Origin: Candidatus Levyibacteriota bacterium
Lineage (GTDB): Bacteria > Patescibacteriota > Microgenomatia > Levybacterales > UBA12049
Assembly (NCBI GenBank): GCA_052034235.1
Contig: JBPOIT010000011.1
Location: 118,719 to 182,718 of the forward strand
Reading direction: 5' to 3'
DNA: 64,000 nucleotides
Made by a program: the position numbers and the translations under genes. The notes beneath the pieces were generated by a model. The model ran no database searches. It had not been told where the DNA came from and saw nothing but the letters and a program-made list of their open reading frames with translations. Positions 20,082 to 47,879 of the stretch are shown here, in pieces (within the stretch, counting starts at the first letter, position 1; each line of letters begins with the position of its first letter).

Positions 20082-21644
20082 ATGATGCTTTTTACAAAAA
20101 AGAATGTATTTTTAGGACTTGTCGCAGTACTGGCGCTTAGTATCCCAATTACCGTCGGCATATTACAGCAGCAACAAGAAACTCGAGGAAGGGCTTCTGC
20201 TTCAACCTCTCTCGCTTTCACACCCACAACATCAACAACTGCCCCTATACAAAAGAAAATGGGAGAAACTATTTCACTCGATTTAATCGTCACCCCAAGT
20301 AACAATCTCGTTACCTTTGTGAAATTTGAACTAAAATATGACCCTACCAAACTTGAACCTGTGGGTACTGATCCGTTTACGCTCAACACGAGCGCTTTTG
20401 TTTCAAAAGACGGGCCAGTGATCACATCAGGCAGACTGATTGCTTCAGCTTCTGTCGGTTCAGATCCGACAAAAGCAATTCAAAAACCAACAAAAGTAGG
20501 GACCATTCTCTTTCGGGCTATTGGAGGAACGGGTAGTTCTCCGACGACGATTACCTTTGAGAATCTCACCCAAGCACTTTCTTCAGCGACAACAGATCAA
20601 GCTTCTGAAAATGTTATCTCAACAACATCCCCTGCGCATATCCTTATCGCAAATAATATCCAAGCATGCACAAGTAATAAATATAAAGCCGAAATGACAG
20701 CAGGACAGGAAGTCCCTACCAACACAAGTTCTGCTAGTGGAACGACAACACTTTCTCTCCTTGCTGAAAGCAAGGCAGATGCTACAACTACTGTCAAAAA
20801 TCTACAGCCTGGCGATGTAACTGGTATGTTCATCTATAGCCCTGCATCAGCTAGTGCTAAAGGCGCACAAAGAGTAACGCTTTATGCCACTGGGACATTT
20901 GCGAATCCTCATACAGCTAATGACGTTTTTATTCCTGAGGATGTACTGAATGATATTAATAGTGGTAATGCTTATGTTGGAATTACTACCAAACAATACG
21001 CAAATGGGGAGATTCGCGGAAAACTGACATGCGTCACAGGAGGTGGCAATGAAGAAACAAATCTTAATTTCGAACTTCTACTCCATGGCATCGGTTCAGC
21101 CGGAGATAATCCTAATCCAAGCGGGAGTTCTCTAAGCAATAAAAATCCATTACACCCTCAACGAAATCTTCAACTCGAGATATATGATGTTGATAACAAA
21201 CTTGTGACAAGTGTTTCTGGAGACCTTTCTCTTAATTACGAAGTTAACGGCGGAATCTTTAAAGGGTCATTGAGCCTTGGAACCAATTTCCAGGAAGGAA
21301 ATTACAATTTGAAAGTAAAATCAGACAGGTATCTTAAACGACGTGTCCCCGGCATTATTCAAATTAAACCAAAATCAGATACACGTGTTCCGAAAATTGA
21401 TTTAGTAGCGGGTGATATTAATAGTGATAATACGCTTAATGTTCTGGACTACAACGCACTTCTTGATTGTGGTTACGGCGAAATTGAACCACTCCCAATG
21501 GCAGATCCAAATGCAATTTTTAACAAAACAGAATGTCAGGCACATACACCTGCTGAGCTCATTGATCTTGATGATAACGGCATCATAAATGGACCTGATT
21601 ATAATCTGTTTATACGTGAACTTTCGGTTCAGAATGGTGACTAG
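20082..21644 (+). CDS. Surface protein with, in order, signal/TM, cohesin-like module, CHRD domain, beta-sandwich and dockerin-type double Ca-binding repeat
   Basis: The CHRD signatures are AGQEVP…YVGITTKQYANGEIRGKL. The dockerin-like segments are AGDINSDNTLNVLDYNALL and DLDDNGIINGPDYNLFIRE. The N-terminal module is shared with 25420, 27757 and 28932. Confidence 0.6.
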   Translation: MMLFTKKNVFLGLVAVLALSIPITVGILQQQQETRGRASASTSLAFTPTTSTTAPIQKKMGETISLDLIVTPSNNLVTFVKFELKYDPTKLEPVGTDPFTLNTSAFVSKDGPVITSGRLIASASVGSDPTKAIQKPTKVGTILFRAIGGTGSSPTTITFENLTQALSSATTDQASENVISTTSPAHILIANNIQACTSNKYKAEMTAGQEVPTNTSSASGTTTLSLLAESKADATTTVKNLQPGDVTGMFIYSPASASAKGAQRVTLYATGTFANPHTANDVFIPEDVLNDINSGNAYVGITTKQYANGEIRGKLTCVTGGGNEETNLNFELLLHGIGSAGDNPNPSGSSLSNKNPLHPQRNLQLEIYDVDNKLVTSVSGDLSLNYEVNGGIFKGSLSLGTNFQEGNYNLKVKSDRYLKRRVPGIIQIKPKSDTRVPKIDLVAGDINSDNTLNVLDYNALLDCGYGEIEPLPMADPNAIFNKTECQAHTPAELIDLDDNGIINGPDYNLFIRELSVQNGD

Positions 21645-21647
21645 TAT

Positions 21648-23624
21648 ATGAAATATTTCCAAAAAAGAAAAAAACTTATTCCCTTAGCTATTTTTATAGC
21701 CCTTTATCTCCTCGTTCTTGTGCCGCTTATCGTATTCAACTTGCAGCAGCGCCAAGATATTCGCAGCAAAGCACAGGTCGATCCAACACCTGGTGTGCAG
21801 CTTGCAGCAGTGTGCGGCAATGCATCTTCAGATATCGTCCTTGTGATTGATCGATCAACAAGTATGACCGGACAGAAATTCACTGACGCAAAGAATGCTG
21901 CAAAATTATTTGTCGATATTATCGATCAAGATAATAACAATTCCCGCATAAGCCTTGTGTCATATGCGGGGAACTCAACAATTAATACACCTATGACAAA
22001 TAACTTTACTTCTATTAAAACCGCGATCGACGGGTTACAACTTCAATCAGGAACTTGTATTCAATGTGCTGTTAAATCAGCAATTCAAACAATCGCAAAT
22101 AACCCTGGAGCAAACAAAAAAGTAGTTGTTTTGTTAACTGACGGACGTGCAAACCGTGTTGATGGCAATTCAACGAGCGAAACAGTCGCAGAACAAGCTA
22201 CATTAACGGCTGTGACAAACGGTCCAGCTATGCCCTACTTTACCATCGGCCTTGGATCTGACGTAAATACAAACCTTCTTCAAAATATAGCAGCAAAATT
22301 TGGAGCAAAGTACTACTTCCCTCCTACACCTGAGCATTTGAACGCAATTTATAAAGAGATCTCTGAAATTGTAGGCAAAGGTTCTGTCTCAGGGTTTGTC
22401 TTTGAAGATCTAAATGCAAACGGAGCGTTTGAAAGTACAGAGCCCAAACTACCAAATTGGCAGGTACAGGTCACACAACAAGGCACAGGGACAACGCAAA
22501 CTGTAACAAGTGATAACCTCGGTAACTATTATGCTGCCGGTCTTTGCGATGGATCACACCAAGTAAAACAAGTTGCCCAAACCGGTTGGAGACAGACATT
22601 GCCAACTGATGTTAACGGACATGTTATTACTGTGACCAATGCAAACGCGGTCATAGACAAGAACTTTGGCCAAACAAAAGCGACAAGATGTTCAGATAAG
22701 ATTGATAATGACAATAACGGATTTATAGATGAAAAAGATTCAACCTGTCACACTGATGGTAATCCAAATAATCCGAACTCATACGATCCTAACAAAGATG
22801 GCGAACGTGGTGGAAATACTTGTGCAGATTCAAAAGATAATAATGGGAACGGTTTAATTGATGGTGCAGATCCAGTATGTCATCCAGGTGGCGATATCAC
22901 AAAGCCTTGGGATCCAAACCTTCCAGAGGTTAATCCTACGCCTACGCCAACATTAACACCGACACCAACAAAAGTGCCTACTGGTACGCCAACACCAACT
23001 CCAACGAAAGTCCCAACGGGCACACCTACGCCAACACCAACTGCTGTTCCAACTTCAGTGCCAACACAAGGCTTGACGAGTTTTCAATTGACAGTTTTCC
23101 AGCACGGTATCGGATCAAGTGGTGATAATACAAATGCAGCAAGTTCGCTCAGTAATAAAAATCCTCTCAGAAAAACTGTCCCAGCAGAATTGCAATTATA
23201 TGATCTAAATAATAACCTGATCGGCGCGGGAACAGGCAAAGTGAATTATAACGAACAAACAGGCAATTACATCGGAACTATCAGTATTACACCAAATGTT
23301 TTTACAACTGGAAAATATACACTTAAGGTAAAAACTGAGGGACATTTGAGAAAACTTATGACCGGTATTCAAACAATTGTCGCCGGACAGCATAACACTT
23401 CCCTACCTGCAGTTTCACTGGTGACTGGAGATATCGACAATAATAATGCGCTGAGTATTCTTGATTACAATCTATTGCTTGACTGCTACAGTGATTTGAC
23501 TGTTGCATCAAATTGTTCTGATACCAAAAAGAAAACTTCATCAGATCTTAACGATGACGGTCCTGTTAACCAAATTGACTACAATCTCTTCTTAAGAGAA
23601 ATTGCAACGCAACCTGGAGAATAA
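21648..23624 (+). CDS. Surface protein with, in order, signal/TM, VWA domain, SdrD-B-like domain, two TSP3-like Cys-bracketed Ca-binding repeats, Pro/Thr linker, beta-sandwich and dockerin-like module
   Basis: Has MIDAS DRSTSM…LLTDGRAN, and Ca-binding repeats DKIDNDNNGFIDEKD and DSKDNNGNGLIDGAD. The linker is PTPTPTLTPTPTKVPTGTPTPTPT. The C-terminal module is homologous to those of 20082, 25420 and 27757. Confidence 0.6.
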   Translation: MKYFQKRKKLIPLAIFIALYLLVLVPLIVFNLQQRQDIRSKAQVDPTPGVQLAAVCGNASSDIVLVIDRSTSMTGQKFTDAKNAAKLFVDIIDQDNNNSRISLVSYAGNSTINTPMTNNFTSIKTAIDGLQLQSGTCIQCAVKSAIQTIANNPGANKKVVVLLTDGRANRVDGNSTSETVAEQATLTAVTNGPAMPYFTIGLGSDVNTNLLQNIAAKFGAKYYFPPTPEHLNAIYKEISEIVGKGSVSGFVFEDLNANGAFESTEPKLPNWQVQVTQQGTGTTQTVTSDNLGNYYAAGLCDGSHQVKQVAQTGWRQTLPTDVNGHVITVTNANAVIDKNFGQTKATRCSDKIDNDNNGFIDEKDSTCHTDGNPNNPNSYDPNKDGERGGNTCADSKDNNGNGLIDGADPVCHPGGDITKPWDPNLPEVNPTPTPTLTPTPTKVPTGTPTPTPTKVPTGTPTPTPTAVPTSVPTQGLTSFQLTVFQHGIGSSGDNTNAASSLSNKNPLRKTVPAELQLYDLNNNLIGAGTGKVNYNEQTGNYIGTISITPNVFTTGKYTLKVKTEGHLRKLMTGIQTIVAGQHNTSLPAVSLVTGDIDNNNALSILDYNLLLDCYSDLTVASNCSDTKKKTSSDLNDDGPVNQIDYNLFLREIATQPGE

Positions 23625-23636
23625 AACTTAACGAGT

Positions 23637-25352
23637 ATGAAAAAGGTGAAAAAAAGAACAACTCATCAAATGAAACAAATAAAAAAAATAAAAAATAAGG
23701 ACTCATTTCTAAAGCAAATGATTGGTTTTCGATGGCAAATTGCTGTCGTAGCGCTTTTTGCTATTGTCGCTTTTGTTGCAGTTTACTTCACTTTCCAAAC
23801 CAAAGCTGCAACGGCATGGCCACTTAAAGTGAGTCAAAATGGACGCTACCTCGTAGATCAAAATAATAAGCCATTCTTTTACACAGCAGATACCGCATGG
23901 ACGCTTGTAAACAAACTCACTGCTGCTTCTGCAAAAAAATTAATTGATGTACGTAAAGAGCAAGGATTTAACGCAATTCAGGCAAGTCTGAGCGGATTTG
24001 GAAGAACAATACCAGGCCCACAAGGAACTCCTTTCCAAAATGGTGATTTAACAAAACCCAACGAAGAATATTTTAAAGTAGTTGATGAAATTGTGAAATA
24101 CGCAGAATCGAAAGATATGGTGCTCGTGATGACACCATTTTGGCTCGGAGACAATGGCGGCAAATTTGGTGGAACATTGCCATCAGATGCAGAAATGCAA
24201 AGTTACGCTGCTTTTCTAGGGAACCGATATAAAAATTCTGGTAACATCATCTGGTTTGTCGGTGGAGACGATGCAGCAGACAGCAATGAAGCAGCAATAA
24301 AACTTTTGGGTAGCGCACTAAAAGCTGCTGATCCTAATCATCTTATAACTGCTCATAACGACGCTAAGACTTTCCAATATAAAAATGAATCTTGGTACAG
24401 TTTGTATGCATTCCAATGGAATGCCAATAGTCCGCCATACAGTTATAAAGATGTTGACGATGGCTATAACCAAACTCCGATAAAACCTGTTTTTAACATG
24501 GAGCCTGCGTATGATCCTTCTACGTGTTGTGGAACTGATAAGGATACGACACCACAAAAAAACAGACGAAGCGGCTGGTGGTCAATACTTTCTGGAGCTA
24601 TGGGTGTTGTTTATGGCGGACCACGAGAAGCTTGGAATGCAAGTGAACCATTAAATCTAGATGCTCTTAACAGGGTTCCAGCTACTCACACAGCAAACAT
24701 TCAAAAAATTCTTAGTGTTTATCCATGGGAGAAATTAGTTCCGGATAACAATAAGGATAGCTTTACCGTAGTAACTGGCGGCAGAGGGACATATGACAAT
24801 GATGATTTTGCAACAGCTGCACGCGCAAGCGATGGCAGTCTCATTGTTGCGTATATACCTACTGGAAGAACATTGACTGTAGACATGTCCAAACTATCAG
24901 GTCCAGCAACTGCATCCTGGATAGATCCAACAAATGCTGCAAAAACTGATGCAGGTGCCAATTTGCCAAATAGCGGAACAAAAGATTTTGCTCCACCAAG
25001 TGCCAACGCAGGTGGCGATAGTGACTTTGTCCTTATTCTCACAACAGGTACCACTACCATATCTACAGTCCCAAATGTATCTCAACCGATAACAAGTCCG
25101 CCATATGTATGTCTTGGTCCATGTGTTCCTTCTGTATCACCGGGAGTTTCTATAGTACCAAGTAACGCAGCACCTGTTCCGTCTGAAGATCCACTCGATC
25201 CCGATAACCCGACAGATCCAGATATTAACCCTTCAACACAGCCTAATCCAATAGATGATGGCGACAACAATCAAAAACCGAAAGGCCTCTTTGCACTCAT
25301 CCTGGAGTTCTTCCGAATACTACTCGAATTTCTTCTAAGCCTTTTTAGATAA
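23637..25352 (+). CDS. Putative glycoside hydrolase (DUF4038/GH140-like TIM-barrel) with N-terminal TM and a Pro-rich C-terminal tail
   Basis: The segment WPLKVSQNGRYLVDQNNKPFFYTADTAWTL…EQGFNAIQ… resembles DUF4038-type hydrolases. The C-terminus is Pro/Asp-rich and then hydrophobic. Confidence 0.5.
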   Translation: MKKVKKRTTHQMKQIKKIKNKDSFLKQMIGFRWQIAVVALFAIVAFVAVYFTFQTKAATAWPLKVSQNGRYLVDQNNKPFFYTADTAWTLVNKLTAASAKKLIDVRKEQGFNAIQASLSGFGRTIPGPQGTPFQNGDLTKPNEEYFKVVDEIVKYAESKDMVLVMTPFWLGDNGGKFGGTLPSDAEMQSYAAFLGNRYKNSGNIIWFVGGDDAADSNEAAIKLLGSALKAADPNHLITAHNDAKTFQYKNESWYSLYAFQWNANSPPYSYKDVDDGYNQTPIKPVFNMEPAYDPSTCCGTDKDTTPQKNRRSGWWSILSGAMGVVYGGPREAWNASEPLNLDALNRVPATHTANIQKILSVYPWEKLVPDNNKDSFTVVTGGRGTYDNDDFATAARASDGSLIVAYIPTGRTLTVDMSKLSGPATASWIDPTNAAKTDAGANLPNSGTKDFAPPSANAGGDSDFVLILTTGTTTISTVPNVSQPITSPPYVCLGPCVPSVSPGVSIVPSNAAPVPSEDPLDPDNPTDPDINPSTQPNPIDDGDNNQKPKGLFALILEFFRILLEFLLSLFR

Positions 25353-25419
25353 ATAGTTTAGGAAAACTCATCTTGACAGTCTAAGCCTAAATTCATTATG
25401 CTTACAGTGATACTGTCTT

Positions 25420-27753
25420 ATGTCTTTTTTTACAAAAAAACGATTAGTGCTTGGTGGATTATTTTTACTCGCTATCGTTCTGCCGGTTACTATCCTTTTC
25501 TTTCAAAATCAACAAAATATAAGATCCCGTGCTGATAAAACTGTCGTGCTATCTTATGAACCAGGATCTACGGCAGGCGCTCCCCTTCAAATCCCAGCAG
25601 GAAGTACATTCTCGCTTGATGTCTTTGTTGATCCTGGAGCAAGTGCAGTATCGTATGTCAAAGCAGAACTTGTGTATGACACTGGGAAATTTGAAGCGGC
25701 TGGCGGGTTTATTCCTAACCAGGAAGCATTCTCTCAAGTTATAGAATCAACCGATGCTCCTGGGAAAGTAACTACCACACTTTCTGTAGGATCTGATACA
25801 TCCAAAGCACTTAAGGCTAAAACAAAAATTGGCACAATCTCATTGCGGGCATTATCAACTGTCGCGACCAACTCAGAAGGCACGATTAACTTTGGTGCAG
25901 GTTCACAAGCACTCGCTATAAGTGCCAACAGCTCATTTAACGAAAATGTTATAGCAAATACAGTTCCCGCAGTTATTCGTTTCAATCAACCTTCAAATGT
26001 CTGTGGTAATGCATCAAGCGATACGATGCTTGTTATCGACAGATCTGGAAGTATGGCTGATAAAGAAGGTACGAGTGGTACCAAAATCTCAAACGCAAAA
26101 ACTGCAGCCAGTAACTTTATCGATATCGTTGCAAGAGACGCAGCCAATAAATTCGGCCTCGTTTCATTCGCTACTACCGCTAGTTTGAACAGTCCAATTG
26201 CGAGTGATGCAAACAGCGTAAAATCACAAATAAATTCACTTTCAACCTCATCATATACCTGTATTGAATGCGGGATACTCAAGGCAAATCAGGAAATAGC
26301 CGCAAAGAAACGGGCTGGAACTAAAAATATTGTCATCCTCTTAACTGATGGTCGTGCAAATGTTGTTGAAGGAAATACTGCAACTGCAGCAGAAGCAACA
26401 GCAGAACTTAAAGCGACAAATGCTGCCATAAGCGGATATAATGCCAACGGAACAATCTTTTTTACGATAGGCCTCGGGAAAGATGTTAATTCAGAATTCC
26501 TTACCAAACTTGCAGAAAAAACGGGAGGTCAATACTACTACAGCCCAACAACAGATCAGCTCAACGGCATTTATAATCAAATCTCTCAAATAATCGCCAA
26601 AGGCAGTGTCGCGGGGAACGTCTTTAATGATACCAATGCCAATGGGACACTTGATCAAGGCGAAGAAAACCTCCCAGGTGCAATTGTGCAGCTTCACTCC
26701 TCTACCCAATCACCTCAATCAGTGACATCTGATAGCACAGGGAATTTCGCAATTACTAATCTCTGTGACGGAAACTATACCTTAAAGCAAGTTCTCCAGT
26801 CAGGCTGGAAACAGACTTTCCCGGCAAACAGCGGCGACCATACAATTGCAATCGCAAATGGCAGTGCAATAACTAACAAGAATTTTGGCAACAATAAAGG
26901 TACACGCTGCTCTGATGGGATTGATAACGACGGCAATGGTTTTATCGACACAAAGGATTCTACCTGTCATACAGATGGCGACCCAACGAATCCTAATTCC
27001 TATGATCCTAACAAAGATGGCGAACGTGGTGGAAATACTTGTGCAGACTCAATTGATAACAACAATGACGGCAAGATAGATGGTGCGGATCCAGTTTGTC
27101 ACACGGACGGCGATCCTACAAAACCTTGGGATCCAAACTTGCCTGAGAATGCCAAACCAACACCAACCCCGACTGCGGCACCAACAATTCCTCCACCTGC
27201 AAATGCTGCTCAGTTCAATTTGGATGTCATACTGCACGGTATAGGATCTGGCGGAGACAATGCAAACCCAACTGCAAATAGTTTCAGTAATAAAACGCCA
27301 CTCAACCCTATACAACAAGCATCTATCAGAGTCTTTAACGCAAGTAATCAATTGTTTGCAACAGCTTCAGGCGTTGTCACATACAGTAGTGCAAGCGGCA
27401 GCTATAAAGGTGTGTTAACAGCTGATAAAGCGATCAGTGCAGGACCATATATTATCCGTGTAACTATTGATAAACATCTTACACGCCTTGTCCCGGGAAT
27501 CCAGTCACTTAAAGAAAATGTTGACACATCGATTTCTTCAATTCAAGTTGTAGCTGGAGATATAACCCGCGATAACAGACTCGATATCCGTGATTATAAC
27601 AATATTCTCGATTGTTATAGTGATTTATTGCCGCCTGTTTCTTGTGATGATCCGCAAAAGAAAAAAGATACTGATATTAATGACGACGGCAATGTTGGAC
27701 AATTTGATTACAACTTGTTCCTGCGTGAACTTTCTACACAACCGGGTGAATAA
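25420..27753 (+). CDS. Surface protein with, in order, signal/TM, cohesin-like module, VWA, SdrD-B-like domain, TSP3-like Ca repeats, Pro/Thr linker, beta-sandwich and dockerin-like module
   Basis: Carries the combined architecture of 20082 and 21648: MIDAS DRSGSM…LLTDGRAN, DGIDNDGNGFIDTKD, DSIDNNNDGKIDGAD, and a C-terminal DINDDGNVGQFDYNLFLRE. Confidence 0.6.
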   Translation: MSFFTKKRLVLGGLFLLAIVLPVTILFFQNQQNIRSRADKTVVLSYEPGSTAGAPLQIPAGSTFSLDVFVDPGASAVSYVKAELVYDTGKFEAAGGFIPNQEAFSQVIESTDAPGKVTTTLSVGSDTSKALKAKTKIGTISLRALSTVATNSEGTINFGAGSQALAISANSSFNENVIANTVPAVIRFNQPSNVCGNASSDTMLVIDRSGSMADKEGTSGTKISNAKTAASNFIDIVARDAANKFGLVSFATTASLNSPIASDANSVKSQINSLSTSSYTCIECGILKANQEIAAKKRAGTKNIVILLTDGRANVVEGNTATAAEATAELKATNAAISGYNANGTIFFTIGLGKDVNSEFLTKLAEKTGGQYYYSPTTDQLNGIYNQISQIIAKGSVAGNVFNDTNANGTLDQGEENLPGAIVQLHSSTQSPQSVTSDSTGNFAITNLCDGNYTLKQVLQSGWKQTFPANSGDHTIAIANGSAITNKNFGNNKGTRCSDGIDNDGNGFIDTKDSTCHTDGDPTNPNSYDPNKDGERGGNTCADSIDNNNDGKIDGADPVCHTDGDPTKPWDPNLPENAKPTPTPTAAPTIPPPANAAQFNLDVILHGIGSGGDNANPTANSFSNKTPLNPIQQASIRVFNASNQLFATASGVVTYSSASGSYKGVLTADKAISAGPYIIRVTIDKHLTRLVPGIQSLKENVDTSISSIQVVAGDITRDNRLDIRDYNNILDCYSDLLPPVSCDDPQKKKDTDINDDGNVGQFDYNLFLRELSTQPGE

Positions 27754-27756
27754 CGT

Positions 27757-28881
27757 ATGTCAAAAAAAACGCTTCTCGTGATCGGTCTTGTAGTCGTTGC
27801 ACTCGTAGGTATACCTGCTGCGCTGCTTGTCTCTCAACAGACACAAAATATCCGTTCAAAAGCATCTGGATCAACAACGCTTGCTATTACTCCTGGCACA
27901 ACTGAATCAACACCGTTACAAAAAGGTATTGGTGAAACGGCTTCATTTGAGGTTTGGGTAAAGCCAGGAGATAACATGCCTTCGATGATCAAAATGGAGA
28001 TTAATTATGATGCTACGTACTTTGAAAATACGCCAAATACCTTTACGGTAAATAATGAGGCCTTTCCCGTGACCGTTGAGGGTCCTGTTGTAACTGATGG
28101 AAAAATACTTGTTGCTGTATCGATTGGCTCAGATAGTACAAAAGCAATTCAAAAAGAAACCAAAGTCGGCACACTCACTCTGAAAACAAAAGCAGTCACT
28201 TCTTCCCCCACGAAAATCTCATTGGGTACAATTTCTGAAGTTCTTTCAGTCGCGACAACCGATCAGGCGGCAGAAAACGTGCTTGCGACAACACTCCCCG
28301 CGTTTGTCATCGTTGCAGAAGCCCCGACACCGACAGCAACAACACTCACTTTCACAGCTTTCCTTCATGGCATTGGCAAAAGCGGTGATAATGCCAATCC
28401 AAGCGCTCACAGCATGAGTAATAAAAATCCCCTTCACGAATCACGGCAAATCTTTATTGAGGTTATTAACGATCAAAATATCGTGACAGCTACAAAAGCA
28501 GGAATCCTTACTTATAATAAAGACAATGGTAACTTTACCGGCACTTTTGATTTTGGACAATCATTACCTGAAGGCGACTATATCATAAAATTAAAAGAGC
28601 CAACTCATCTTCGTAAACTTGTCGACGGAATCATATATATTAAACCCCAGCAGAGCAATCAAATTCCGGAGGTCGCCTTTGTTGCAGGCGATGTGAATAA
28701 CGATAATACACTCAATATACTTGATTATAATATCATTTCCGGCTGTTACAGTGATTTACTTCCCGCAGTTGCCTGTGACGATCTCAAAAAAGAAATCTCA
28801 GATTTAAATGACGACGGGAAAGTAAACCAATACGACTATAACCTTTTCCTCAGAGAAATCATTGTCCAATATGGCGGATAA
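27757..28881 (+). CDS. Surface protein with signal/TM, cohesin-like module, beta-sandwich and dockerin-like module
   Basis: The N-terminus is homologous to 20082 (…GSDSTKAIQKETKVGTLTL…ATTDQAAENV…). The C-terminus has AGDVNNDNTLNILDYNII and DLNDDGKVNQYDYNLFLREI. Confidence 0.6.
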   Translation: MSKKTLLVIGLVVVALVGIPAALLVSQQTQNIRSKASGSTTLAITPGTTESTPLQKGIGETASFEVWVKPGDNMPSMIKMEINYDATYFENTPNTFTVNNEAFPVTVEGPVVTDGKILVAVSIGSDSTKAIQKETKVGTLTLKTKAVTSSPTKISLGTISEVLSVATTDQAAENVLATTLPAFVIVAEAPTPTATTLTFTAFLHGIGKSGDNANPSAHSMSNKNPLHESRQIFIEVINDQNIVTATKAGILTYNKDNGNFTGTFDFGQSLPEGDYIIKLKEPTHLRKLVDGIIYIKPQQSNQIPEVAFVAGDVNNDNTLNILDYNIISGCYSDLLPAVACDDLKKEISDLNDDGKVNQYDYNLFLREIIVQYGG

Positions 28882-28931
28882 TATCAATAGTCTGCTCGAC
28901 AAAACAAGCTCCTAGATATTACAATAGAGGC

Positions 28932-29561
28932 ATGTCAAAAACCTCAGTCGCGCTTATTGTACTTTTTTTTATCTCTCTAACAACACTGCTCATATTGAAT
29001 GCAAAATATTCTTCAAACCCTGTCTTACCGTCATTTCCTAAAATGTTTCCGACCCAAACAGTTATTTCAGAAAGTACGCTTTCTCTTTCTCCAACAATCC
29101 TTAACGTACAACCAGGCAAGCGAACATCGCTGCAAATAATAATTGAAAATAGTGGACAAAAGCCCTCACTTATCCAAATGGAACTCGCGTATGATCCTTC
29201 CGTTATCAGTAACGTTTCATTTATCCCAGGATCGTTTTATCAAAATCCAGATGTCCTACTCACAACCGTTAACGCAAGAAATGGCAGAATTTCTTATGCT
29301 ATCGCTCCAAGTAAAGGCCAAGAAGATACAACGGGTTCAAATGTCGTCACAACGCTGATGTTCACTCCCCGACTAACCACGAGACAAACAACTATCTCCT
29401 TTATGCCAAAAACCCTTGTGCAAACTGAAGAGACAAAAAATACGTTAAAAACAACATTTGGAGCAACAATAAAATTACAATCTGGATTTGAACCTGTTCC
29501 TGCATCTCCTTCTGCGATTATTCAACCTGAAGTACCGTATCAATTACCTACTGCGTTTTGA
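28932..29561 (+). CDS. Membrane-anchored cohesin-like single-module protein
   Basis: Has an N-terminal TM, then a module matching the N-terminal modules of 20082, 25420 and 27757 (SLQIIIENSGQKPSLIQMELAYDPSVI…). No C-terminal dockerin segment is present. Confidence 0.45.
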   Translation: MSKTSVALIVLFFISLTTLLILNAKYSSNPVLPSFPKMFPTQTVISESTLSLSPTILNVQPGKRTSLQIIIENSGQKPSLIQMELAYDPSVISNVSFIPGSFYQNPDVLLTTVNARNGRISYAIAPSKGQEDTTGSNVVTTLMFTPRLTTRQTTISFMPKTLVQTEETKNTLKTTFGATIKLQSGFEPVPASPSAIIQPEVPYQLPTAF

Positions 29562-30453: not shown

Positions 30454-30621
30454 ATGCGTCAATTGAAGAAACTTTTTGGGTCAAAAACAGCAGTCTTAGG
30501 TTTCTTTGCGGTACTTACTTTACTTCTCGCCATTCCACTTATTGTCATGATGATGCAGGAAGAACAGGATCCACGACAATTTGCTGATGAAATTACAACC
30601 GAAAAGAATCAATCGAAATAG
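30454..30621 (+). CDS. Small (55-aa) putative membrane peptide, below the ORF-track size cutoff
   Basis: ATG at 30454 is preceded by TTGACA at 30408. The product is MRQLKKLFGSKTAVLGFFAVLTLLLAIPLIVMMMQEEQDPRQFADEITTEKNQSK. Confidence 0.25.
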   Translation: MRQLKKLFGSKTAVLGFFAVLTLLLAIPLIVMMMQEEQDPRQFADEITTEKNQSK

Positions 30622-30624
30622 TTA

Positions 30625-35791: not shown

Positions 35792-36587
35792 ATCGCAGTA
35801 AGAACTATTCTGCTCCCCACTGGACGTGCGGATTTCCCGCATCCAGCGAGTCTCTTATAAAAGCCTCTTTGAGAAGTTTTATCTTCTCAATGCCAGAAAT
35901 GGTTAAATGATGCTTTTGAAGCATGAGATTTGCTACGATACAAAATAGAGCAAAACTCTGCTTTTTCTTTGCTTGTAGAGGATATTTTGTAAAGAATGGA
36001 ATAATTTTTGTTGTAATATCTTTTAAGTTTGAGACCTTATATTTGTAATGCGGTCTCCACTTTTTATACCTCTCATATTTGAGATGGTAGATATTGCCAC
36101 AAGCAAACGATTCTTTAATCCTTTCTAAAATTTCCAAATCATCTTCTCGTAATTCTATTTCGAAGATGAGTCTTACTTCAAGCAAACGATTGTTTTTGTG
36201 TTTGTTAAAACTAACACTAAAACAACCTTCACCATCAACTAATCCAACAATATAATAAGGATTTAATTTTGAGTTCATCCCTTCCTCTAAAATCATTATA
36301 CATAATTCTAAAGTACTATGGAATCTGCTGACTTCCTATAGCCGATTATAGTTCTGATGCATATAGGATCTCCTTGGGTCACTTAAAAGACAATTTCAAA
36401 CATCCTAAGAAGCTTTTCTAGTCTCTTCCTCTTAGTACACGTAAGAGTCGAGAAGCTTTGTTTATCTTAGGCTGCTCTTCGTTTCATCGAACCCTTCAGA
36501 CTTTCCCTTACGGGAGAAGTCCTGTTCTTCAACTACAAGAATGGATTTTCACCATTTTGTCGGTTAAGCTGCCAAGCGCATTTAATT
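35792..36587 (-). mobile_element. Intron inserted in the 16S rRNA decoding-region helix (near E. coli position ~1395), probably group I
   Basis: The sequence between the TTGTACA and CACCGCCCGTC halves of the conserved 16S motif has no rRNA similarity and contains a homing-endonuclease ORF. Confidence 0.75.
35805..36296 (-). CDS. LAGLIDADG-family homing endonuclease encoded within the 16S intron
   Basis: 163 aa with an IVGLVDGEGCFSV motif (a single LAGLIDADG motif is visible). Confidence 0.8.
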   Translation of the reverse strand: MILEEGMNSKLNPYYIVGLVDGEGCFSVSFNKHKNNRLLEVRLIFEIELREDDLEILERIKESFACGNIYHLKYERYKKWRPHYKYKVSNLKDITTKIIPFFTKYPLQAKKKQSFALFCIVANLMLQKHHLTISGIEKIKLLKEAFIRDSLDAGNPHVQWGAE

Positions 36588-36885
36588 TGTACAAGACCCG
36601 AGAACGTATTCACAGCGGCCTACTGATCCGCGATTACTACTGATTCCTCCTTCATGCAGTCGGGTTGCAGACTGCTATCTGAACTGAGGCGAAATTTCTG
36701 AGATTTGCTTGCCGTCGCCGGCTTGCTGCTCTTTGTTCTTCGCCATTGTAGGGTGTGTGTAACCCAGGGCATAAGGGCCGTGCTGACTTGACGTCTTCCC
36801 CTCCTTCCTTCCCGATATGATCGGGACCGTCCGAAATGAATATGTAACATTTCGCGGGGGTTGCGCTCGTTTCCCCACTTAAGGG

Positions 36886-36929
<44 letters not shown>

Positions 36930-37038
36930 GTACCATCCTTACGGATCTACCAATGTTTCCAAAGGTATTAAACGGTATCATGTCAAGCCCTGGTAAGGTT
37001 TTTCGCTTTGTCTCGAATTAAACCACACGCTCCACCAG

Positions 37039-37070
<32 letters not shown>

Positions 37071-37870
37071 TAACCTTGCGGTCGTACTCCCCAGGCGGTT
37101 CGCTTAATGCGTTAGCTTGAACCTCTGCAGACAAGTCTGCAAAAGTTAGCGAACATCGTTTACGGCTAGGACTACACAGGTATCTAATCTGTTTCGCTAC
37201 CCTAGCTTTCGTGCCTCAGCGTCAGGAAAAACCCAGGAGCCTGCCTTCGCCCTTGGTGTTCCAGTTAATATCAACGCATTTCACTGCTACACTAACTGTT
37301 CCAGCTCCCCGATCAATCCTCAATTCCGTGAGTATCACCACCAGTCCCAAGGTTAAGCCTTGGTCTTTAAGTAATGACTTTACGGAACGCCTACGCACAC
37401 TTTACGCCCAATGAATCCGGATAACGCTTGCCTCCTACGTATTACCGAGACTTCTGGCACGTAGTTAGTAGAGGCTTATTCTCCAAGCTGTGAAAGGCTT
37501 GGCAAAAGGAGTTTACAACCCGAAGGCCTTCATCCTCCACGCGGCGTCGCTGCGTCAGACTTTCGTCCATTGCGCAATATTCCTGGTTGCTGCCATCCGT
37601 AGATGTATTGCCCGTGTCTAAGTGCAATTGTGGCTGATCGACCTCTCAGTCCAGCTACCCGTCATCGCCTTGGTAAGCCTTTACCTTACCAACTAGCTGA
37701 TGGGACGCAGGCTCCTCTCTCGGCGGACCGTTAAGTCCTTTACCCTTGCGGGACTATAGTGAATTACCCGACCTTTCGGCCGGCTATGCACTACCCAGAG
37801 GTAGATTCCTACGCGTTACTCACCCGTCTGCCACTTGAATATTACTATTCCCGTTCGACTTGCATGCCTA

Positions 37871-37913
<43 letters not shown>

Positions 37914-38100
37914 AAAAAAAATTTGGGTTTCAGATTTCTTTATTTGTATAAGGAATAATCTGAAAAAAATTCCTACCACATCTTGATTGTCAAACGCATG
38001 ATTATCCAAATCACACGCTTGAACTGTTGCGTGAATAAGTGTGTTGTGTATTTCGTTTTTAAAGAGCAATAGTATTTATTGTAGAGCGTTTTGAGATAAA

Positions 38101-39807: not shown

Positions 39808-39861
39808 GCTCACATTATACCAAAGATTGAAATTGGGAGGTAAATCTGGAATACTTGATGT

Positions 39862-40374: not shown

Positions 40375-40376
40375 TT

Positions 40377-41132
40377 ATGGAACAACATTTACCACCAGCA
40401 CATGAAAAAAAACCAGTCCAAAATACTCGTTCATTACGATTCTTAATCCGAAAATACTTTTGGTATATTGTTATTTTTTTCGTGATTGCGATAACAAGCG
40501 GCGTACTGCTTGCAGAGCATGAGGCGAAATCCACGGCAAATTGGGAAACATTCACTAGTAAGGATGCTGGTGTAACATTTCAGCATCCAAAAACATTTAA
40601 TGTTATTGAGGATAAAGGTTGGAGAATCACAGCGTACACATCTGAGGAAAACCCTGAAAACAATATTAAAATCCTCTACTCTCACAACGAACTACCTGAT
40701 GCGTTATCCACCGAAGAACAGTTTTTAGCAAACTGTCAGGCAAAACGCGTGAGCGAAATAACAGCAAAAGGCGGCCGGATGAAGGTGTATGAAGACAGCA
40801 CCTGCAGCGGACAAGTGGTGGAAAACGCCGTTCTCGTCTATGCAGAAAACGGCATGACCTATGATATCAGCCTTTTTGGCAAAATTGACCGAACACAACT
40901 CTACCTCTTCCTCTCCACATTTCGTTTCGAACCAGTCCAATCAGCATTGACTGTTAACCCGAGTGAAGGAGTTTTGCCAACTGGCATGTCTCCAAAGCCG
41001 AGCGTCGTGGACATAACTGAAGCTGTAACAATATGCACGATGGACGCAAAACAATGCTCAGATGGTTCATTTGTAGGAAGATCTGGACCGAATTGTGAGT
41101 TTAAATGCCCCGATGGAAGTGTTTCTCGTTGA
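40377..41132 (+). CDS. Hypothetical membrane-anchored protein with a Cys-rich C-terminus
   Basis: N-terminal TM, and a C-terminal …CTMDAKQCSDGSFVGRSGPNCEFKCPDGS. Confidence 0.4.
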   Translation: MEQHLPPAHEKKPVQNTRSLRFLIRKYFWYIVIFFVIAITSGVLLAEHEAKSTANWETFTSKDAGVTFQHPKTFNVIEDKGWRITAYTSEENPENNIKILYSHNELPDALSTEEQFLANCQAKRVSEITAKGGRMKVYEDSTCSGQVVENAVLVYAENGMTYDISLFGKIDRTQLYLFLSTFRFEPVQSALTVNPSEGVLPTGMSPKPSVVDITEAVTICTMDAKQCSDGSFVGRSGPNCEFKCPDGSVSR

Positions 41133-41146
41133 AGTAACCTGAAGCT

Positions 41147-43468: not shown

Positions 43469-43584
43469 AAAGTCAGCAATGGCTAATATTGTAATCTAGA
43501 TTATACAGGAGGTGTCAAGTAGCAGAAAATGATTTATATTATTGAGACTATAGAAAAGTAGAAATAATTAGACCCCACATGAAT

Positions 43585-44747
43585 TTATCTTGCACCATCA
43601 AATACTATTATTTCCCTTCTTGTTGCCTTTTGTTCTAAATAATAGTTTCTGTTAGCTTGCTCTGTAACAGCTCTCGTAACATCAAAAATAGGTTGTATAG
43701 AAACATGTGTTTCATCAGTAACTCTACCATTATGTCCCAACACGTCCACAGCACTTGCAAACATCGCTTGTACTTCAACAAAGTTTTGTCCATCAGGCAA
43801 CCCCGTATCAAGATATCCACTTGAGCCACCTCGTACTACAAAGTTGCCTTGACCTATTTCAACAAGATTAGGCACTAAACCATTTTTTGCAATAACGGGC
43901 TCACCACCGTCAATAGATACTGAAAGATATGGACTAGTAGCAATTCCAGGTTCTGCTACTAATTCGCTAACTGTTATGTTTGACTTCAAATTATCAGTAC
44001 CATCTATCGCCACAATCGCACCTTTGCGTGGATCTGGAATAGCCTCCACATCAAGTGAACCAGAGATATGATCTGTCCCTCCACTCAAAACATCAAAAGC
44101 AACCTCAATAAAAGGGCCTCTTGAAAGGAATTGATCAACACGATGACCATCCAGTACATGCCCCTCTACAATATGTGGTTTAACATATGAAAGATTACTG
44201 CCCCTATCAACTGTAAATAGATGCGTGCCATTATCAAGGCGTGCATATACTAACTCGTTAGAATTATCTTTACCAGTCCAACTTCTATTATCCCCAGGAC
44301 TATATCGTGAATTGGTATTAACATACCCAACACGAGTACGTCCCTTATGATCTTTATTAACAAGCGCTTGCCATGTCTGATAACCAGTATTTTCTGTTGC
44401 GAACTTATCATTATGTCCTGAAATTACATGCGCAACTTCTAATCCATATTCTTCTGCCACTGCTGTCAAATTGAGGTCTACTTCAACATTTGCAAAATCA
44501 TCTCGCCCATGTCCACCTCCAAAATCTGTTATCCGGACAATATCAAATGGTCCCTTTACAAGTGCACGATCAGGCACCAACAAGCCTGTTTTTCTATCAG
44601 GCCTAAAGCTACTCGTGTCAATATGCGGAGCCTTACCATTTGCAGTAGGGAGAGCTCCTTCCACAAGAAAAATGCCACTCGGAGTAGCAGCTGTTGGGAT
44701 TGGTAAACCGTTTCTTGAAATTTGTTCTAGACTTGGTCGTGCCATAT
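43585..44747 (-). CDS. Hypothetical 388-aa protein under SAM-riboswitch control, no family recognised
   Basis: The start is taken at MARPSLEQ (44747), with GGGAGG 16 nt upstream. The ORF-track N-terminal extension to 44895 overlaps the riboswitch and is rejected. Motifs include ITDFGGGHGRDD, VISGHNDKF and SGGTDHISGSLD. Confidence 0.5.
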
Positions 44748-44749
44748 AA

Positions 44750-44918
44750 AACAAAAAAACCTCCCGGAAAGGAGGTTTATTACAAAAAAATTGTTTTCCA
44801 GATTTAATCTGGACTAATCCTCCCCCTACGGGATTGGGTTTGGCACCGTGGTATTTACTCGGTTGCCGGATGGGTCTTCGGAGCCAATTCTCCATTCGCC
44901 ATCACTCTTGATTAGCAA
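44750..44918 (-). promoter_or_regulatory. SAM-I (S-box) riboswitch with aptamer at 44811..44916 and intrinsic terminator at 44750..44776
   Basis: The minus-strand aptamer is GCUAAUCAAGAGUGAUGGCGAAUGGAGAAUUGGCUCCGAAGACCCAUCCGGCAACCGAGUAAAUACCACGGUGCCAAACCCAAUCCCGUAGGGGGAGGAUUAGUC. It contains the S-box blocks AUCAAGAG, GGAG, CCGGCAACC and GGUGCCAA, and P1 pairs CUAAUC with GAUUAG. The terminator is CCUCCU-uucc-GGGAGG followed by U7, and its 5' arm can alternatively pair with the aptamer's GGGGGAGG. Confidence 0.75.
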
Positions 44919-44962
44919 TATAATAGCATAGAGCACATATGATGACAAGAGGTTTTTTGTGA

Positions 44963-46030
44963 TTAGTGCGGGGTCATGCACGCACCTGTTGACTGATTCC
45001 AAATTGGTTTCGGATCGACAGTGAGATTTGCTGGTGGATCAATAATAATTTGTGTGTCTCCACTTGGAGTGATTGAGTTTTCGCATTCCACAACCGCCTG
45101 TGCGTCTGAAGGATTTCCAACATAAAGATCAACCATTGTCACGACGCCGCAACCTTTAGGCGCTGTCCATGAAACAGCGCATTCGTCCTCTTTGATGAAA
45201 TATTTTTGAACACGCGGCACATAAATAATTTGTCCAACTTTGTATGCTCCAGCACCCGCTGGAGATGCAAATGTTAATGGATCTGCATGTGTTCCTGTAC
45301 CGCCTGCTTCCTGATGGATAACGGGATTTGCGATTGCTTTTGAACCTTTTGGATCATTGTCGTAGGCACCATAAAAGGTAATTTTCACATTGGCAGTTGT
45401 GCCAGCGCCACCTGATGGGACAACTGAAAGCACTGTCGAAGGTACCGGTGGTGCTACTGAAGTTGATGTACTTGGCACAGGTGCTGTTGAAGGATCAGGA
45501 CATGGAACTTCTTCTTCCTGCTCTTGTTCTTCATCTGGTGTTGTATCTTCTTCATTTGGAACGTTGCTTGGGGCTGGGACAGTATTTTCGTCGGGCAGTT
45601 TGATCGTTCCTTCCCCCAATAATTTATTGATAAGTTCAATAAGCCATTCAAGTATCTGCTTCATAAATTTACTTACTTCCCCATCGTGAATTTTATGTTT
45701 GCTTTTGTGTTTACTTTTCTTGCTATGTGCAGTTGACGCCCCTCCCGTAACACATGGATCTGCTGGAGTTTGACTCATACTTGTTGAAGGAGTTTGCGCT
45801 GTGGGTGCAGGAGCACTACTTGTTACCGGTGATACTGCAACAGATGTGCAGGACGGACACGGTGCTAATGGATAAAAGCTTGGTTTTATCACAGATGATG
45901 CTTCTGTTCTCACGTCCTGCTCTTTTTGGACGAGGAAAATAGTTAGAGGCATTAACATCGCGAGCATGACCGCATATGCAACAAGACTAAGTTGCCTCAC
46001 ATGTTCCCTTTTATGATTGAATTCGTTCAT
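44963..46030 (-). CDS. Secreted protein with Pro/Ser/Thr-rich linkers, a basic KSKHK/amphipathic module and a C-terminal 3D/double-psi-beta-barrel-like domain
   Basis: Signal/TM N-terminus. The C-terminus (…ITFYGAYDNDPKGS…THADPLTFASPAGAGAYKVGQIIYVPRV…) resembles MltA-type 3D domains. It shares an internal module with gene 46074. Confidence 0.45.
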   Translation of the reverse strand: MNEFNHKREHVRQLSLVAYAVMLAMLMPLTIFLVQKEQDVRTEASSVIKPSFYPLAPCPSCTSVAVSPVTSSAPAPTAQTPSTSMSQTPADPCVTGGASTAHSKKSKHKSKHKIHDGEVSKFMKQILEWLIELINKLLGEGTIKLPDENTVPAPSNVPNEEDTTPDEEQEQEEEVPCPDPSTAPVPSTSTSVAPPVPSTVLSVVPSGGAGTTANVKITFYGAYDNDPKGSKAIANPVIHQEAGGTGTHADPLTFASPAGAGAYKVGQIIYVPRVQKYFIKEDECAVSWTAPKGCGVVTMVDLYVGNPSDAQAVVECENSITPSGDTQIIIDPPANLTVDPKPIWNQSTGACMTPH

Positions 46031-46073
46031 ACTATTTAAGAGTAACTTCTCGCTCAGAGAGAGTCAAGTATGA

Positions 46074-47879
46074 TTAGTCACAAGTACCTGGATCGTCAGG
46101 GTAGTTTGGATTAATGTTATGGACGCATGCATTGGTACAACATTTCCGTGCACCTGTTGCATCACATTTTTGACCGCTTGGAATACATGCAAATACTTGC
46201 GTAGGCGCTGCACTTGGAGCAACACTAAACGGCTGCGTAATTGAAGGCGCGACAGAGACTGGCGTTGATGGAGCAATGATAGGTGCCACTGACGGTGAGA
46301 CGACCGGAACAGATGGATTTATTGTAGGGACAGGTGCACTTGTTGGAGCACTTGTCGGCGCGCATGGATCAGGTACTGTGGATGGAGTTGGCTGCGGGTT
46401 TGGAAGAGGTGTTGTCCCACCACCGATAAGTCGCAGAAGCAGATTTAAAAGTTCAATAAGAAACCTGAGCAGTGCGTCCATAAATTTACTCACACCACCG
46501 CTTTTCTGTTTATGTTTGCTTTTCTTTTTCTTATTGTGAGCAATCGACGCTCCTTCGGCTACGCAAGGTTGCGTTGATACACTTGGAGTCGTAGTTCGAC
46601 TTGAAGGTTGAGGGTTTGTACTTGCGGAACTCGGAATTGGTGAAGTTACGCCACAGCTGGGACAAGGAGCAATAACGCCGTAGGTTGGTGTTATGAAAGC
46701 AGATGTCGGTGCTGAATTAGCGGCAAAGTTGACTCGAATAATTTTATCATCCTCCGCTTGAGGGGTTCCCCTGCCGTCTCTATTTGAAGTTGTGATGTAT
46801 AACTGATTATCAGGACCAACGATTACTTCACGAATACGGCCAAACTGCCCCTTGAAGTGCTGATTAACGATACTGGCTGTTGTGCCTTGCACTTTTGCTT
46901 CATACAGAGCTTGTCCTTTGAGTCCTCCAAAAAAGATCGAATCATTAAAGAAAGCTGTACCCGCAGGTGCCCACGTTGTTGTTGCATCATTGCCGCTATG
47001 AACAAGCGGCGTTACCATACCTGTTTGCTGAGCATCACCTTCGATAGTTGGCCAGCCATAATTTTTGCCTGCTTCGATAAGATTAAGTTCATCAGACCTT
47101 GATGGCGAAGAATTACCATGCTCTGTTGCATAAAATGTCGAACCGTTCCAAGTAAGGCCCTGTGGGTTACGATTACCATATGAATACGTTCTATTATTAA
47201 ATGGATTTCCAGGTGCAGGTTGACCTGTATCAGTTACTCTCAATATTTTCCCGGCCAAAGAGTTTGTGTCTTGTGCAGATGATGGATTTCCTGCATCACC
47301 TGTTGTTATATATAAAAAGCCATCCGGTCCAAATTTAATTCGACCCCCATCATGATTTGTACCTCCTGGTATCGCATCTACAATAGTTGTCGGGCTTGTC
47401 ATTTGATTATTGGAAAAGACATACCGAACAACACGATTCAATGTGTTTCCGCTTGTTTCCTGATATGTGTAATACAGGTATACAAAATTATTTGAAGCAA
47501 ATTGCGGATGAAGCGCGATACCAAGCAGACCTCCTTCACCGGTAGCTTTCACCCCGGTTATTGCAACTATATCTGTCGTTTGTCCATTTGCCGGAGCAAT
47601 GAGTTTTACCGTACCTGGCCTTTCAGTAACCAACATATTCCCATCCGGCAAAAAAGCTATCGCCCAAGGAATGTTTAAATTCTTGGCAATTATTCTTGTT
47701 GCCGGTGTACCAGACGGAAGATTCTGCGCTTCAGTTTTCAGAGATTGATTGGTATTTATATTGGCTGTAAATATAACTAAAACTATCAGTGGAAGAACAA
47801 GAAGTAACAGTAAGAAGAGATGAGATATGTGATGTCTGTGCATATTTTTATTGTACGTACGCACAACAACTTTTTGCAA
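46074..47879 (-). CDS. Secreted soluble quinoprotein glucose/sorbosone dehydrogenase-like beta-propeller protein with a Cys-rich C-terminal extension
   Basis: GSDH-family patterns (…NIPWAIAFLPDGNMLVTERPG…, …NHDGGRIKFGPDGFLYITTGD…, …GKNYGWP…) are followed by the module shared with gene 44963 and a Cys-rich tail. Confidence 0.55.
   Translation of the reverse strand: MQKVVVRTYNKNMHRHHISHLFLLLLLVLPLIVLVIFTANINTNQSLKTEAQNLPSGTPATRIIAKNLNIPWAIAFLPDGNMLVTERPGTVKLIAPANGQTTDIVAITGVKATGEGGLLGIALHPQFASNNFVYLYYTYQETSGNTLNRVVRYVFSNNQMTSPTTIVDAIPGGTNHDGGRIKFGPDGFLYITTGDAGNPSSAQDTNSLAGKILRVTDTGQPAPGNPFNNRTYSYGNRNPQGLTWNGSTFYATEHGNSSPSRSDELNLIEAGKNYGWPTIEGDAQQTGMVTPLVHSGNDATTTWAPAGTAFFNDSIFFGGLKGQALYEAKVQGTTASIVNQHFKGQFGRIREVIVGPDNQLYITTSNRDGRGTPQAEDDKIIRVNFAANSAPTSAFITPTYGVIAPCPSCGVTSPIPSSASTNPQPSSRTTTPSVSTQPCVAEGASIAHNKKKKSKHKQKSGGVSKFMDALLRFLIELLNLLLRLIGGGTTPLPNPQPTPSTVPDPCAPTSAPTSAPVPTINPSVPVVSPSVAPIIAPSTPVSVAPSITQPFSVAPSAAPTQVFACIPSGQKCDATGARKCCTNACVHNINPNYPDDPGTCD

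Follow-up and report, generated by a model that had tools for sequence, protein, structure and literature searches.

Why do secreted proteins with otherwise unrelated mature parts begin with nearly the same N-terminal sequence in a bacterium of the Candidate Phyla Radiation (CPR)? The question is raised by a stretch of 64,000 nucleotides from a Candidatus Levyibacteriota bacterium (contig JBPOIT010000011.1, positions 118,719 to 182,718), here called the window, in which an earlier sequence-only reading had noticed the motif QQxQNIRSKA at the end of several signal peptides and proposed that it could be a dedicated sorting or processing signal rather than a generic Sec signal. We found that the motif belongs to a longer N-terminal module, which is a real, statistically secure and lineage-wide feature. 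The module is best explained as a class of Sec-type signal peptides that is modular, specific to the lineage and used by a subset of the exported surface proteins in Levybacteria and related Microgenomates.

An alignment of N-termini revealed that the module is common to six open reading frames (ORFs) in the window (Table 1). It consists of a basic n-region, an uncharged stretch of 21-22 residues with a near-invariant proline, and the signature Q-x-x-Q-[DEN]-x-R-x-x-A. All six ORFs contain P-x6-Q-x2-Q-x2-R-x2-A, in which the Pro, both Gln, the Arg and the Ala are invariant and the distance from Pro to Ala is exactly 16 residues. A degenerate DNA pattern for these five residues and their spacing alone matches the window six times, with 0.00 matches expected from 100 shuffles, and all six matches are in frame and located at the start of an ORF. 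The six members score 28-56 bits against a position matrix that was derived from 47 instances in independent genomes, while 1.27 Mb of control DNA from non-CPR genomes and viruses contains a single site above 25 bits, located in a clostridial type IV pilin. Even with a threshold of E<=1, the N-terminal module is matched by none of the models in Pfam or NCBIfam.

The consensus of the module is hh-[AG]-[IL]-P-[LVA]-T-[VIL]-[YF]-[LI]-x-Q-[QK]-x-Q-[ED]-[TI]-R-[SQ]-[RK]-A, of which the last 10 residues, Q-[QK]-x-Q-[ED]-[TI]-R-[SQ]-[RK]-A, make up the polar c-region. The uncharged stretch, measured from the last charged residue of the n-region to the first Gln, is 21 residues long in 105 and 22 residues long in 31 of 142 carriers, which is longer than a typical hydrophobic h-region, and the Pro occupies its 15th position. 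It is preceded by Lys or Arg in 136 of the 142 carriers, with mostly K-rich n-regions (KK, GKK, RK), and from Met to Ala the module has a median length of 39 residues. The conservation remarked on in the sequence-only reading extends over about 25 residues, including the Pro in the hydrophobic segment, rather than over 8-10, and it is the whole signal peptide and not the c-region that forms the conserved unit. The conservation per column among 119 family members is 2.6 bits in the module and 2.8 bits in the folded domains. Translation confirmed that the peptides quoted in that reading are all present in the ORFs to which they had been assigned. For the two proteins on the minus strand, the peptides were correct but had been placed at the low coordinates of the ORFs, whereas the N-termini are at 46030 and at about 47843. 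The latter, a GSDH/pyrroloquinoline quinone (PQQ)-dehydrogenase, had been listed as a carrier of the motif and has to be removed, as it shows a loose resemblance only (PLIV ... KTEA), contains a 5-residue insertion and obtains a negative matrix score; none of 120 GSDH homologs, many of which come from CPR lineages, has the module.

The module is widespread beyond the window. We scanned one genome per GTDB species with the DNA pattern, to which two constraints for T in hydrophobic codons were added, and obtained at least 118 loci, of which at least 49 hold true instances, defined by a position at the start of a long ORF and by a hydrophobic context. The other 69 of the 118 listed loci represent chance matches in unrelated genomes, and no true instance was seen in a non-CPR genome among the matches listed. 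A scan of viral contigs, used as a negative control, gave 69 matches that were all due to chance, most of them out of frame in a single phage gene that recurred. In the 8-kb tiles around the 49 true loci, the position matrix identified 70 sites above 25 bits, 24 of which were missed by the DNA pattern. A profile of 40 positions matched at least 1178 protein clusters at E<=0.001 in a set of 1.84 billion representative proteins, and nearly all of the 150 listed matches fall within the first 75 residues. A word-indexed search of 5.8 billion sequences with the six short N-termini retrieved only orthologs of the 55-aa ORF at 30454, the E-values being too harsh for queries of 40 residues.

The 49 true loci have a GC content of 0.32-0.48, and their housekeeping genes, where present, are 50-77% identical to the genes in the window. 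Those with informative titles are assigned to Levybacteria/Levyibacteriota, Shapirobacteria, Gottesmanbacteria, the “Patescibacteria group” and, in one case, “Parcubacteria”. The closest relatives of the window are metagenome-assembled genomes (MAGs) labelled as Levybacteria, with which the ThyA and Dcd proteins are 73-77% identical. A search of related genomes, as the sequence-only reading had advised, thus recovers the motif across Levybacteria, Shapirobacteria and Gottesmanbacteria, and the spread over at least 1178 clusters from several Microgenomates lineages argues against a mere recent duplication. As a side observation, some third-party MAGs carry the title “uncultured Gammaproteobacteria bacterium” (SRP/ERP..._co..., binchicken isolates) and belong to the CPR by their GC content, and several of them share housekeeping genes with the window at 50-72% identity (loci L073, L076, L078, L080, L095, L097, L115, L119, L122, L123, L130, L140, L146, L147, L154, L166, L168, L175, L177, L181, L183, L184 and L189). 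Judged by these features, the gammaproteobacterial label is an artefact.

The proteins that carry the module belong to several unrelated domain families, as had been claimed. Among the 143 best profile hits we identified PKD (33), cohesin (31), dockerin (21), SurA_N/PrsA-like (8) and VWA (5) proteins, along with Ig-like, fn3, CBM and CHRD domains, and the genome scan contributes one representative each of the S8 subtilases, SLH proteins, glycoside hydrolases and M64 peptidases; SdrD_B is also found among the carriers. A hydrophobic tail at the C-terminus (...LFFAL-COOH) is present in 48 of the 143 hits, mostly preceded by [LIV]-[PA]-x-T-G-P-[GS]-[DN], with the canonical form in 22, and 21 hits end in a dockerin. 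Of the plausible ORFs that show an LFFAL-type tail in the CPR tiles, most have the N-terminal module or a variant of it that lacks the Pro. The full tail, [LIV]-[PA]-x-T-G-P-[GS]-[DN]-x-hydrophobic(~20)-LFFAL-COOH, resembles an LPXTG signal and was recorded in P0133-P0275 and at loci L103, L146, L148, L151, L155, L156, L165, L175 and L177, and in none of the proteins in the window. It has no basic end, and the NCBIfam LPXTG models match it only at E ~0.1. Sortase is reported to be near-ubiquitous in Microgenomates (PMC6744442), and the tail may be the substrate signal of this sortase or a simple tail anchor.

Ordinary signal peptides are present in the same genomes. In the window, they end in ...SSAFA/DN (1144, minus strand), ...PVHA/AS (19310, plus strand) and ...VSYA/NF (34628, minus strand), where the slash marks the cut, and in the genomes of the relatives they end in AHA/Q, AYA/Q, VSA/H and AEA/A. 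Because these AxA signals coexist with the module, and because the 120 GSDH homologs all lack it, the module represents a distinct class and not a generic Sec signal, in agreement with the sequence-only reading. We also noted that the ordinary CPR signals often have A-x-A followed by Gln (ALA/Q, AHA/Q, AYA/Q, VHA/Q, and T-x-A-Q-T in the GSDH relatives; L075, L118, L136, L182, L184, L190 731-1444 and P0279-P0288), which is reminiscent of the Q-rule in Bacteroidetes.

If the module is a signal peptide, where is it cut? The information content drops from 4.3 bits at the Ala to about 1 bit directly after it. This Ala is present in 113 of 113 members of a family that was collected by full-length similarity, and not selected for the motif, and in 143 of 143 of the best profile hits. 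Position -3 is occupied by Ser, Thr or Gly, or by Gln in 6 of the 113 and 50 of the 143 proteins, and position -2 is variable (R/K/H/S/N/Q/E). Proline at +1 blocks signal peptidase I. This residue is absent from +1 in both sets (0/143 and 0/113, 0/256 jointly) but present at +2 in 27 of the 143, with a mean frequency of about 10% over positions +2 to +7, and the probability of its absence from +1 in all 143 at such a frequency is roughly 5e-7 in a simple binomial calculation. The first folded domain begins 3-8 residues after the Ala. In the AlphaFold2 model of the 27757 family, a helix at residues 3-26 is followed by a low-confidence coil (Q27-S39) and a first strand at residues 40-45, four residues after the Ala. 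Likewise, the cohesin proteins with the motif have no linker, whereas the cohesin-only proteins with a plain transmembrane segment (28932 and six relatives) have a Pro/Thr-rich linker of 20-35 residues. The module hence displays the sequence properties of a Sec substrate of signal peptidase I, with a basic n-region, a hydrophobic h-region, small residues at -1 and -3, a variable -2 and no Pro at +1, except that Gln at -3 is atypical. The suggestion of a signal peptidase I-type site was therefore well founded, with S/Q-x-A as its end. Taken together, the end of conservation at the Ala, the restriction of -3 to S/Q/T/G, the variable -2 and the absence of Pro from +1 argue for a cut by signal peptidase I directly after the Ala.

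With some confidence, we therefore favor a class-specific signal peptide that is cleaved by signal peptidase I and whose extended conserved part is a determinant by which surface-display proteins are sorted or recognised. The precursor would enter the Sec translocon with its N-terminus inside and its C-terminus outside, and a type I signal peptidase would cut it directly after the invariant Ala. The released mature protein, with its first folded domain a few residues downstream, would then rely on a C-terminal module of its own to stay at the surface, which would be a dockerin or the LPXTG-like motif with its hydrophobic tail. The Pro, the Q-x-x-Q, the acidic residue and the Arg would be the determinant that sets surface-display proteins apart from those exported with ordinary AxA signals; these residues exceed what a generic peptidase needs, and such a role is the most likely one for them.

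Several features weigh against a cleaved signal peptide with a special role. The hydrophobic segment has the uniform length of a transmembrane helix and exceeds the h-regions of most signals that are cleaved. The type I signal peptidases that have been characterised do not usually have substrates with Arg at -4 and -2 or with Gln at -3, the latter found in about 35-40% of the carriers that do not belong to the cohesin family. The PrsA/PpiD-like foldases (8/143) and the 55-aa ORF carry the module without any other anchor, which fits a retained membrane anchor better. Finally, neither the window nor the surroundings of the carriers yielded a signal peptidase, a sortase or another candidate for a cognate enzyme. 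Most of these features would be explained if the module were an uncleaved signal-anchor, in which Q-x-x-Q-[ED]-x-R-x-x-A forms a juxtamembrane stalk that binds a conserved partner in the envelope and serves as the substitute for lipoprotein anchoring in this lineage. The single continuous helix in the AlphaFold2 model is consistent with such an anchor, as is the lack of a lipobox in all of the carrier N-termini listed. Similarly, the foldases are membrane-tethered in other monoderms and have only this module to hold them, and the conserved 55-aa ORF encodes hardly anything besides the module. However, an anchor does not account for the avoidance of Pro at +1 in proteins where it is common at +2, the invariant Ala behind a small/variable/small pattern, the end of conservation exactly at the Ala or the missing linker before the first domain. 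Furthermore, the third of the carriers that have a hydrophobic anchor at their C-terminus would be doubly anchored. We regard the signal-anchor as the main rival, but as rather unlikely.

Another explanation is that the module is an ordinary Sec signal with no special role, and that the similarity reflects descent or shuffling of one N-terminal cassette. The cohesin-like family is indeed large, with 49 members in 32 of 50 sources (the 49 loci and the window), and the carrier genes cluster in tandem. A comparison with a syntenic relative, represented by locus L190, speaks to this explanation. The gene order in the L190 cluster is the same as in the window, except for the absence of the apiosidase-like gene at 23637-25352. 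Synonymous differences between the two are found in about 50% of the conserved codons, in the signal and mature parts alike, while the peptide of the module is mostly as conserved as the mature part or more (Table 1). With synonymous differences spread evenly over the two parts, the constraint acts on the peptide and not on the DNA or RNA, and gene conversion or an RNA-level cause of the similarity can be dismissed. The ordinary signal of 19310, in contrast, has evolved fast. The ortholog of 25420 in L190 has a different signal, which points to some mobility of the cassette, but since this signal also contains the motif, the module appears to be exchangeable and yet kept. The fixed length of 21-22 residues and the retention of the motif on unrelated domain families across Levybacteria, Shapirobacteria and Gottesmanbacteria are also difficult to explain by shuffling, and we consider a cassette without function improbable.

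That the module is a degenerate class III signal, similar to that of type IV pilins and with a helix that serves in a pilus-like assembly, is very improbable: although the only strong match to the matrix outside the CPR is a clostridial type IV pilin (KKGFTLAELLIVVAIIAVLVAIAVPLFVSGLQKAQEARDNA, 30.6 bits), none of the carriers listed has the prepilin peptidase site G/F-T-L-x-E or Glu5, the Pro is 15 residues into the helix and not at position 22, and the carriers are large multidomain proteins (cohesin, VWA, PKD) with C-terminal anchors. The pilin N-terminus in question (GFTLAELLIVVAIIAVLVAIAVPLFVSGLQKAQEARDNA, 30.6 bits; locus L121 from a Clostridia MAG, ~3018-3075, minus strand) shares the Pro-kink and Q..Q.E.R..A with the module, a resemblance that is probably due to convergent helix chemistry.

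How does the favored signal peptide class compare with those already described? By analogy, its logic most resembles that of the YSIRK-G/S signals, which also have a conserved motif in a Sec signal, are restricted to a lineage and to a subset of surface proteins, often with an LPXTG-type anchor at the C-terminus, and coexist with generic signal peptides. The YSIRK signals of LPXTG proteins in Staphylococcus and Streptococcus are described in PMC11370438 as being cleaved by signal peptidase I and as directing the site of secretion. The module differs in that its conserved part is located in the late h-region and the c-region rather than at the n/h boundary, its length is rigidly fixed, and its hosts are CPR bacteria. 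The YSIRK-x3-G/S motif itself was not seen at the n/h boundary of the carrier N-termini listed, so that the likeness is functional only. The SipW-cognate signals of TasA, TapA and camelysin (TIGR04088) likewise form a recognisable signal family, and they are coupled to a type I signal peptidase paralog of their own, a mechanism of the kind that the sequence-only reading had proposed. The sipW gene is encoded beside its substrates, whereas no peptidase gene was found adjoining the carriers of the module, and neither TIGR04088 nor any other NCBIfam signal or sorting model gave a hit at E<=1 in the 20 proteins scanned. Generic substrates of Sec and signal peptidase I share the basic n-region, the hydrophobic core, the polar c-region that ends in small-x-Ala and the lack of Pro at +1. 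They differ from the module, which has about 25 positions conserved across unrelated proteins, an h-region of 21-22 residues, frequent Gln at -3 and Arg at -4/-2, and which evolves as slowly as folded domains.

The Q-rule and the lipoprotein export signal in Bacteroidetes provide a precedent for phylum-level rules beside the cleavage site (PMC5837995). However, these rules concern a Gln at +1 or residues after the lipidated Cys, while the Gln residues of the module are upstream of the predicted cut. Other signals were not seen in the carriers listed: there was no twin-arginine motif (S/T-R-R-x-F-L-K) of the Tat type in the n-regions, no lipobox (L-[AS]-[GA]-C), the end of the h-region and its vicinity being free of Cys, and no prepilin signal (G/A at -1, F/M at +1 and Glu at +5). 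We also considered the internal I-P-L-T-V as a sortase site of the LPXTG type and rejected it, as it lies inside the membrane helix and has no Gly, and a sortase would retain the wrong fragment. Full-text searching retrieved no description of the motif in the literature, and a 2026 preprint on a CPR pilus (10.64898/2026.03.03.709456) reports only ordinary signals predicted by SignalP.

The sequence-only reading had further proposed to look for peptidases that co-occur with the motif, and none was found in the 8-kb tiles or in the 64-kb window, a scope that leaves room for an unlinked enzyme. A clustering of 403 ORFs showed that GroEL/ES, MurJ-like, LepA and cohesin proteins are the only recurrent neighbors of the carriers, with no linked peptidase. 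Regular expressions and phmmer searches with SipS, SrtA and LspA sequences identified nothing in the 403 ORFs, and a Pfam scan of the 46 other proteins in the window showed no S26 peptidase or sortase among the 25 of 61 families listed. The window does encode two M50 site-2 proteases, both far from the cluster. Hence, the idea of a dedicated sorting or processing signal holds in so far as the class is distinct; the dedicated route is something that we infer, because no cognate enzyme was found in the window or beside the carriers. As a tentative possibility, there may be a surface-display pathway specific to Microgenomates, in which a dedicated factor, such as a signal peptidase paralog, a sortase-associated factor or a membrane protease, would read Pro...Q-x-x-Q-[ED]-x-R-x-x-A and route the precursors to a secretion site or a processing step coupled to the LPXTG-like or dockerin anchors. 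The released peptide of 39 residues or the 55-aa product may then have a function of its own.

Table 1. Carriers of the N-terminal module, the GSDH protein and two contrast genes in the window, with matrix scores and amino acid identities to the orthologs at locus L190.
Feature	Coordinates	Strand	ORF	Matrix score (bits)	Signal identity (%)	Mature part identity (%)
Signal module Met1-Ala38, MMLFTKKNVFLGLVAVLALSIPITVGILQQQQETRGRA	20082..20195	+	20082-21644, 520 aa	56.5	89	74
Signal module Met1-Ala42	21648..21773	+	21648-23624, 658 aa	45.1	86	67
Signal module Met1-Ala38	25420..25533	+	25420-27753, 777 aa	47.2	47	
Signal module Met1-Ala36	27757..27864	+	27757-28881, 374 aa	39.0	72	77
Signal module Met1-Ala44 (30454-30585) in 55-aa ORF	30454..30621	+	30454-30621, 55 aa	28.3	77	55
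Signal module Met1-Ala44	45899..46030	-	44963-46030, 355 aa	38.9		
GSDH/PQQ-dehydrogenase N-terminus, non-member	47733..47843	-	46074-47879, likely start Met 47843	-2.9		
Contrast: cohesin-only protein, plain N-terminal transmembrane segment, no motif	28932..29561	+				
Contrast: ordinary short signal peptide (…QPVHA/AS) and C-terminal transmembrane segment	19310..20017	+			43	62

The genes for surface proteins form a tandem cluster on the plus strand at 19310-29561. The product of ORF 20082 contains cohesin and CHRD domains according to Pfam, along with a dockerin-like part, while the product of ORF 21648 contains VWA, SdrD_B and dockerin domains without a cohesin and thus represents a different family context. 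VWA and SdrD_B domains were also identified by Pfam in the product of ORF 25420, whose N-terminal region belongs to the cohesin family by paralogy and whose C-terminus is dockerin-like. For ORF 27757, Pfam finds the dockerin only, and the cohesin was recognised from a fold match: the AlphaFold2 model of this family (mean pLDDT 91) matches type I cohesins in Foldseek with TM-scores of 0.75-0.79 normalised to the target, and the best match is a cohesin-X-dockerin fragment of CipA from C. thermocellum, indicative of a scaffoldin-like cohesin-X-dockerin protein. All four tandem paralogs have a dockerin-like sequence at their C-terminus. The cohesin-only protein at 28932, with its 20-35-aa Pro/Thr-rich linker before the cohesin, is found beside genes with the motif in seven loci. 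The arrangement at 20082-29561 on the plus strand, in which secreted proteins with a cohesin at the N-terminus and a dockerin at the C-terminus are encoded beside a plain-anchored cohesin-only protein, suggests a scaffoldin-like, head-to-tail assembly of cohesins and dockerins on the cell surface. The apiosidase-like glycoside hydrolase encoded inside the cluster at 23637-25352 (plus strand) has its own N-terminal transmembrane/AxA signal without the motif, and since the gene is absent from the syntenic L190 cluster, it is likely a recent insertion.

Outside this cluster, the ORF at 30454 encodes the module and only 11 additional residues, and is kept as a 55-aa ORF in L190 (9886-10053). The product may be secreted as a mini-peptide, act on the processing step as a decoy or regulator, or reside in the membrane as a stable single-pass peptide. 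The Cys-rich product of ORF 44963-46030 has no match in Pfam or NCBIfam.

Two further features of the window were noted in passing. On the minus strand at 35805-37919, a 16S rRNA gene (36540-37919), only 1380 nt long for a full-length match to the model, is followed by a weak hit to group II intron domains D1-D4 (36278-36354) and by an ORF of the LAGLIDADG type (35805-36296), assigned by reading of the sequence only. By these annotations, the region represents an rRNA operon into which an intron or a homing endonuclease gene has been inserted. A SAM-I/IV riboswitch (44781-44919, minus strand) occupies the 5' end of the longest ORF called there (43585-44895), which means that the real start of this gene is downstream of the riboswitch.

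CPR bacteria are thought to live attached to other cells, and the way in which they build their surfaces is largely obscure; we know of no cultured representative of Microgenomates. The module may serve as a cheap predictor of the CPR surface proteome, as the profile captures at least 1178 clusters, including scaffoldin-like proteins with cohesins and dockerins, adhesin-like proteins with PKD or VWA domains, and foldases. Standard predictors may call the hydrophobic segments of 21-22 residues transmembrane anchors and misassign the topology of these proteins. The module could also be used as a natural secretion tag in heterologous work. It adds a CPR case to the short list of lineage-specific signal classes, such as YSIRK-G/S, the SipW-cognate signals and KxYKxGKxW, and would provide a handle on whether bacteria with small genomes run more than one signal-processing route.

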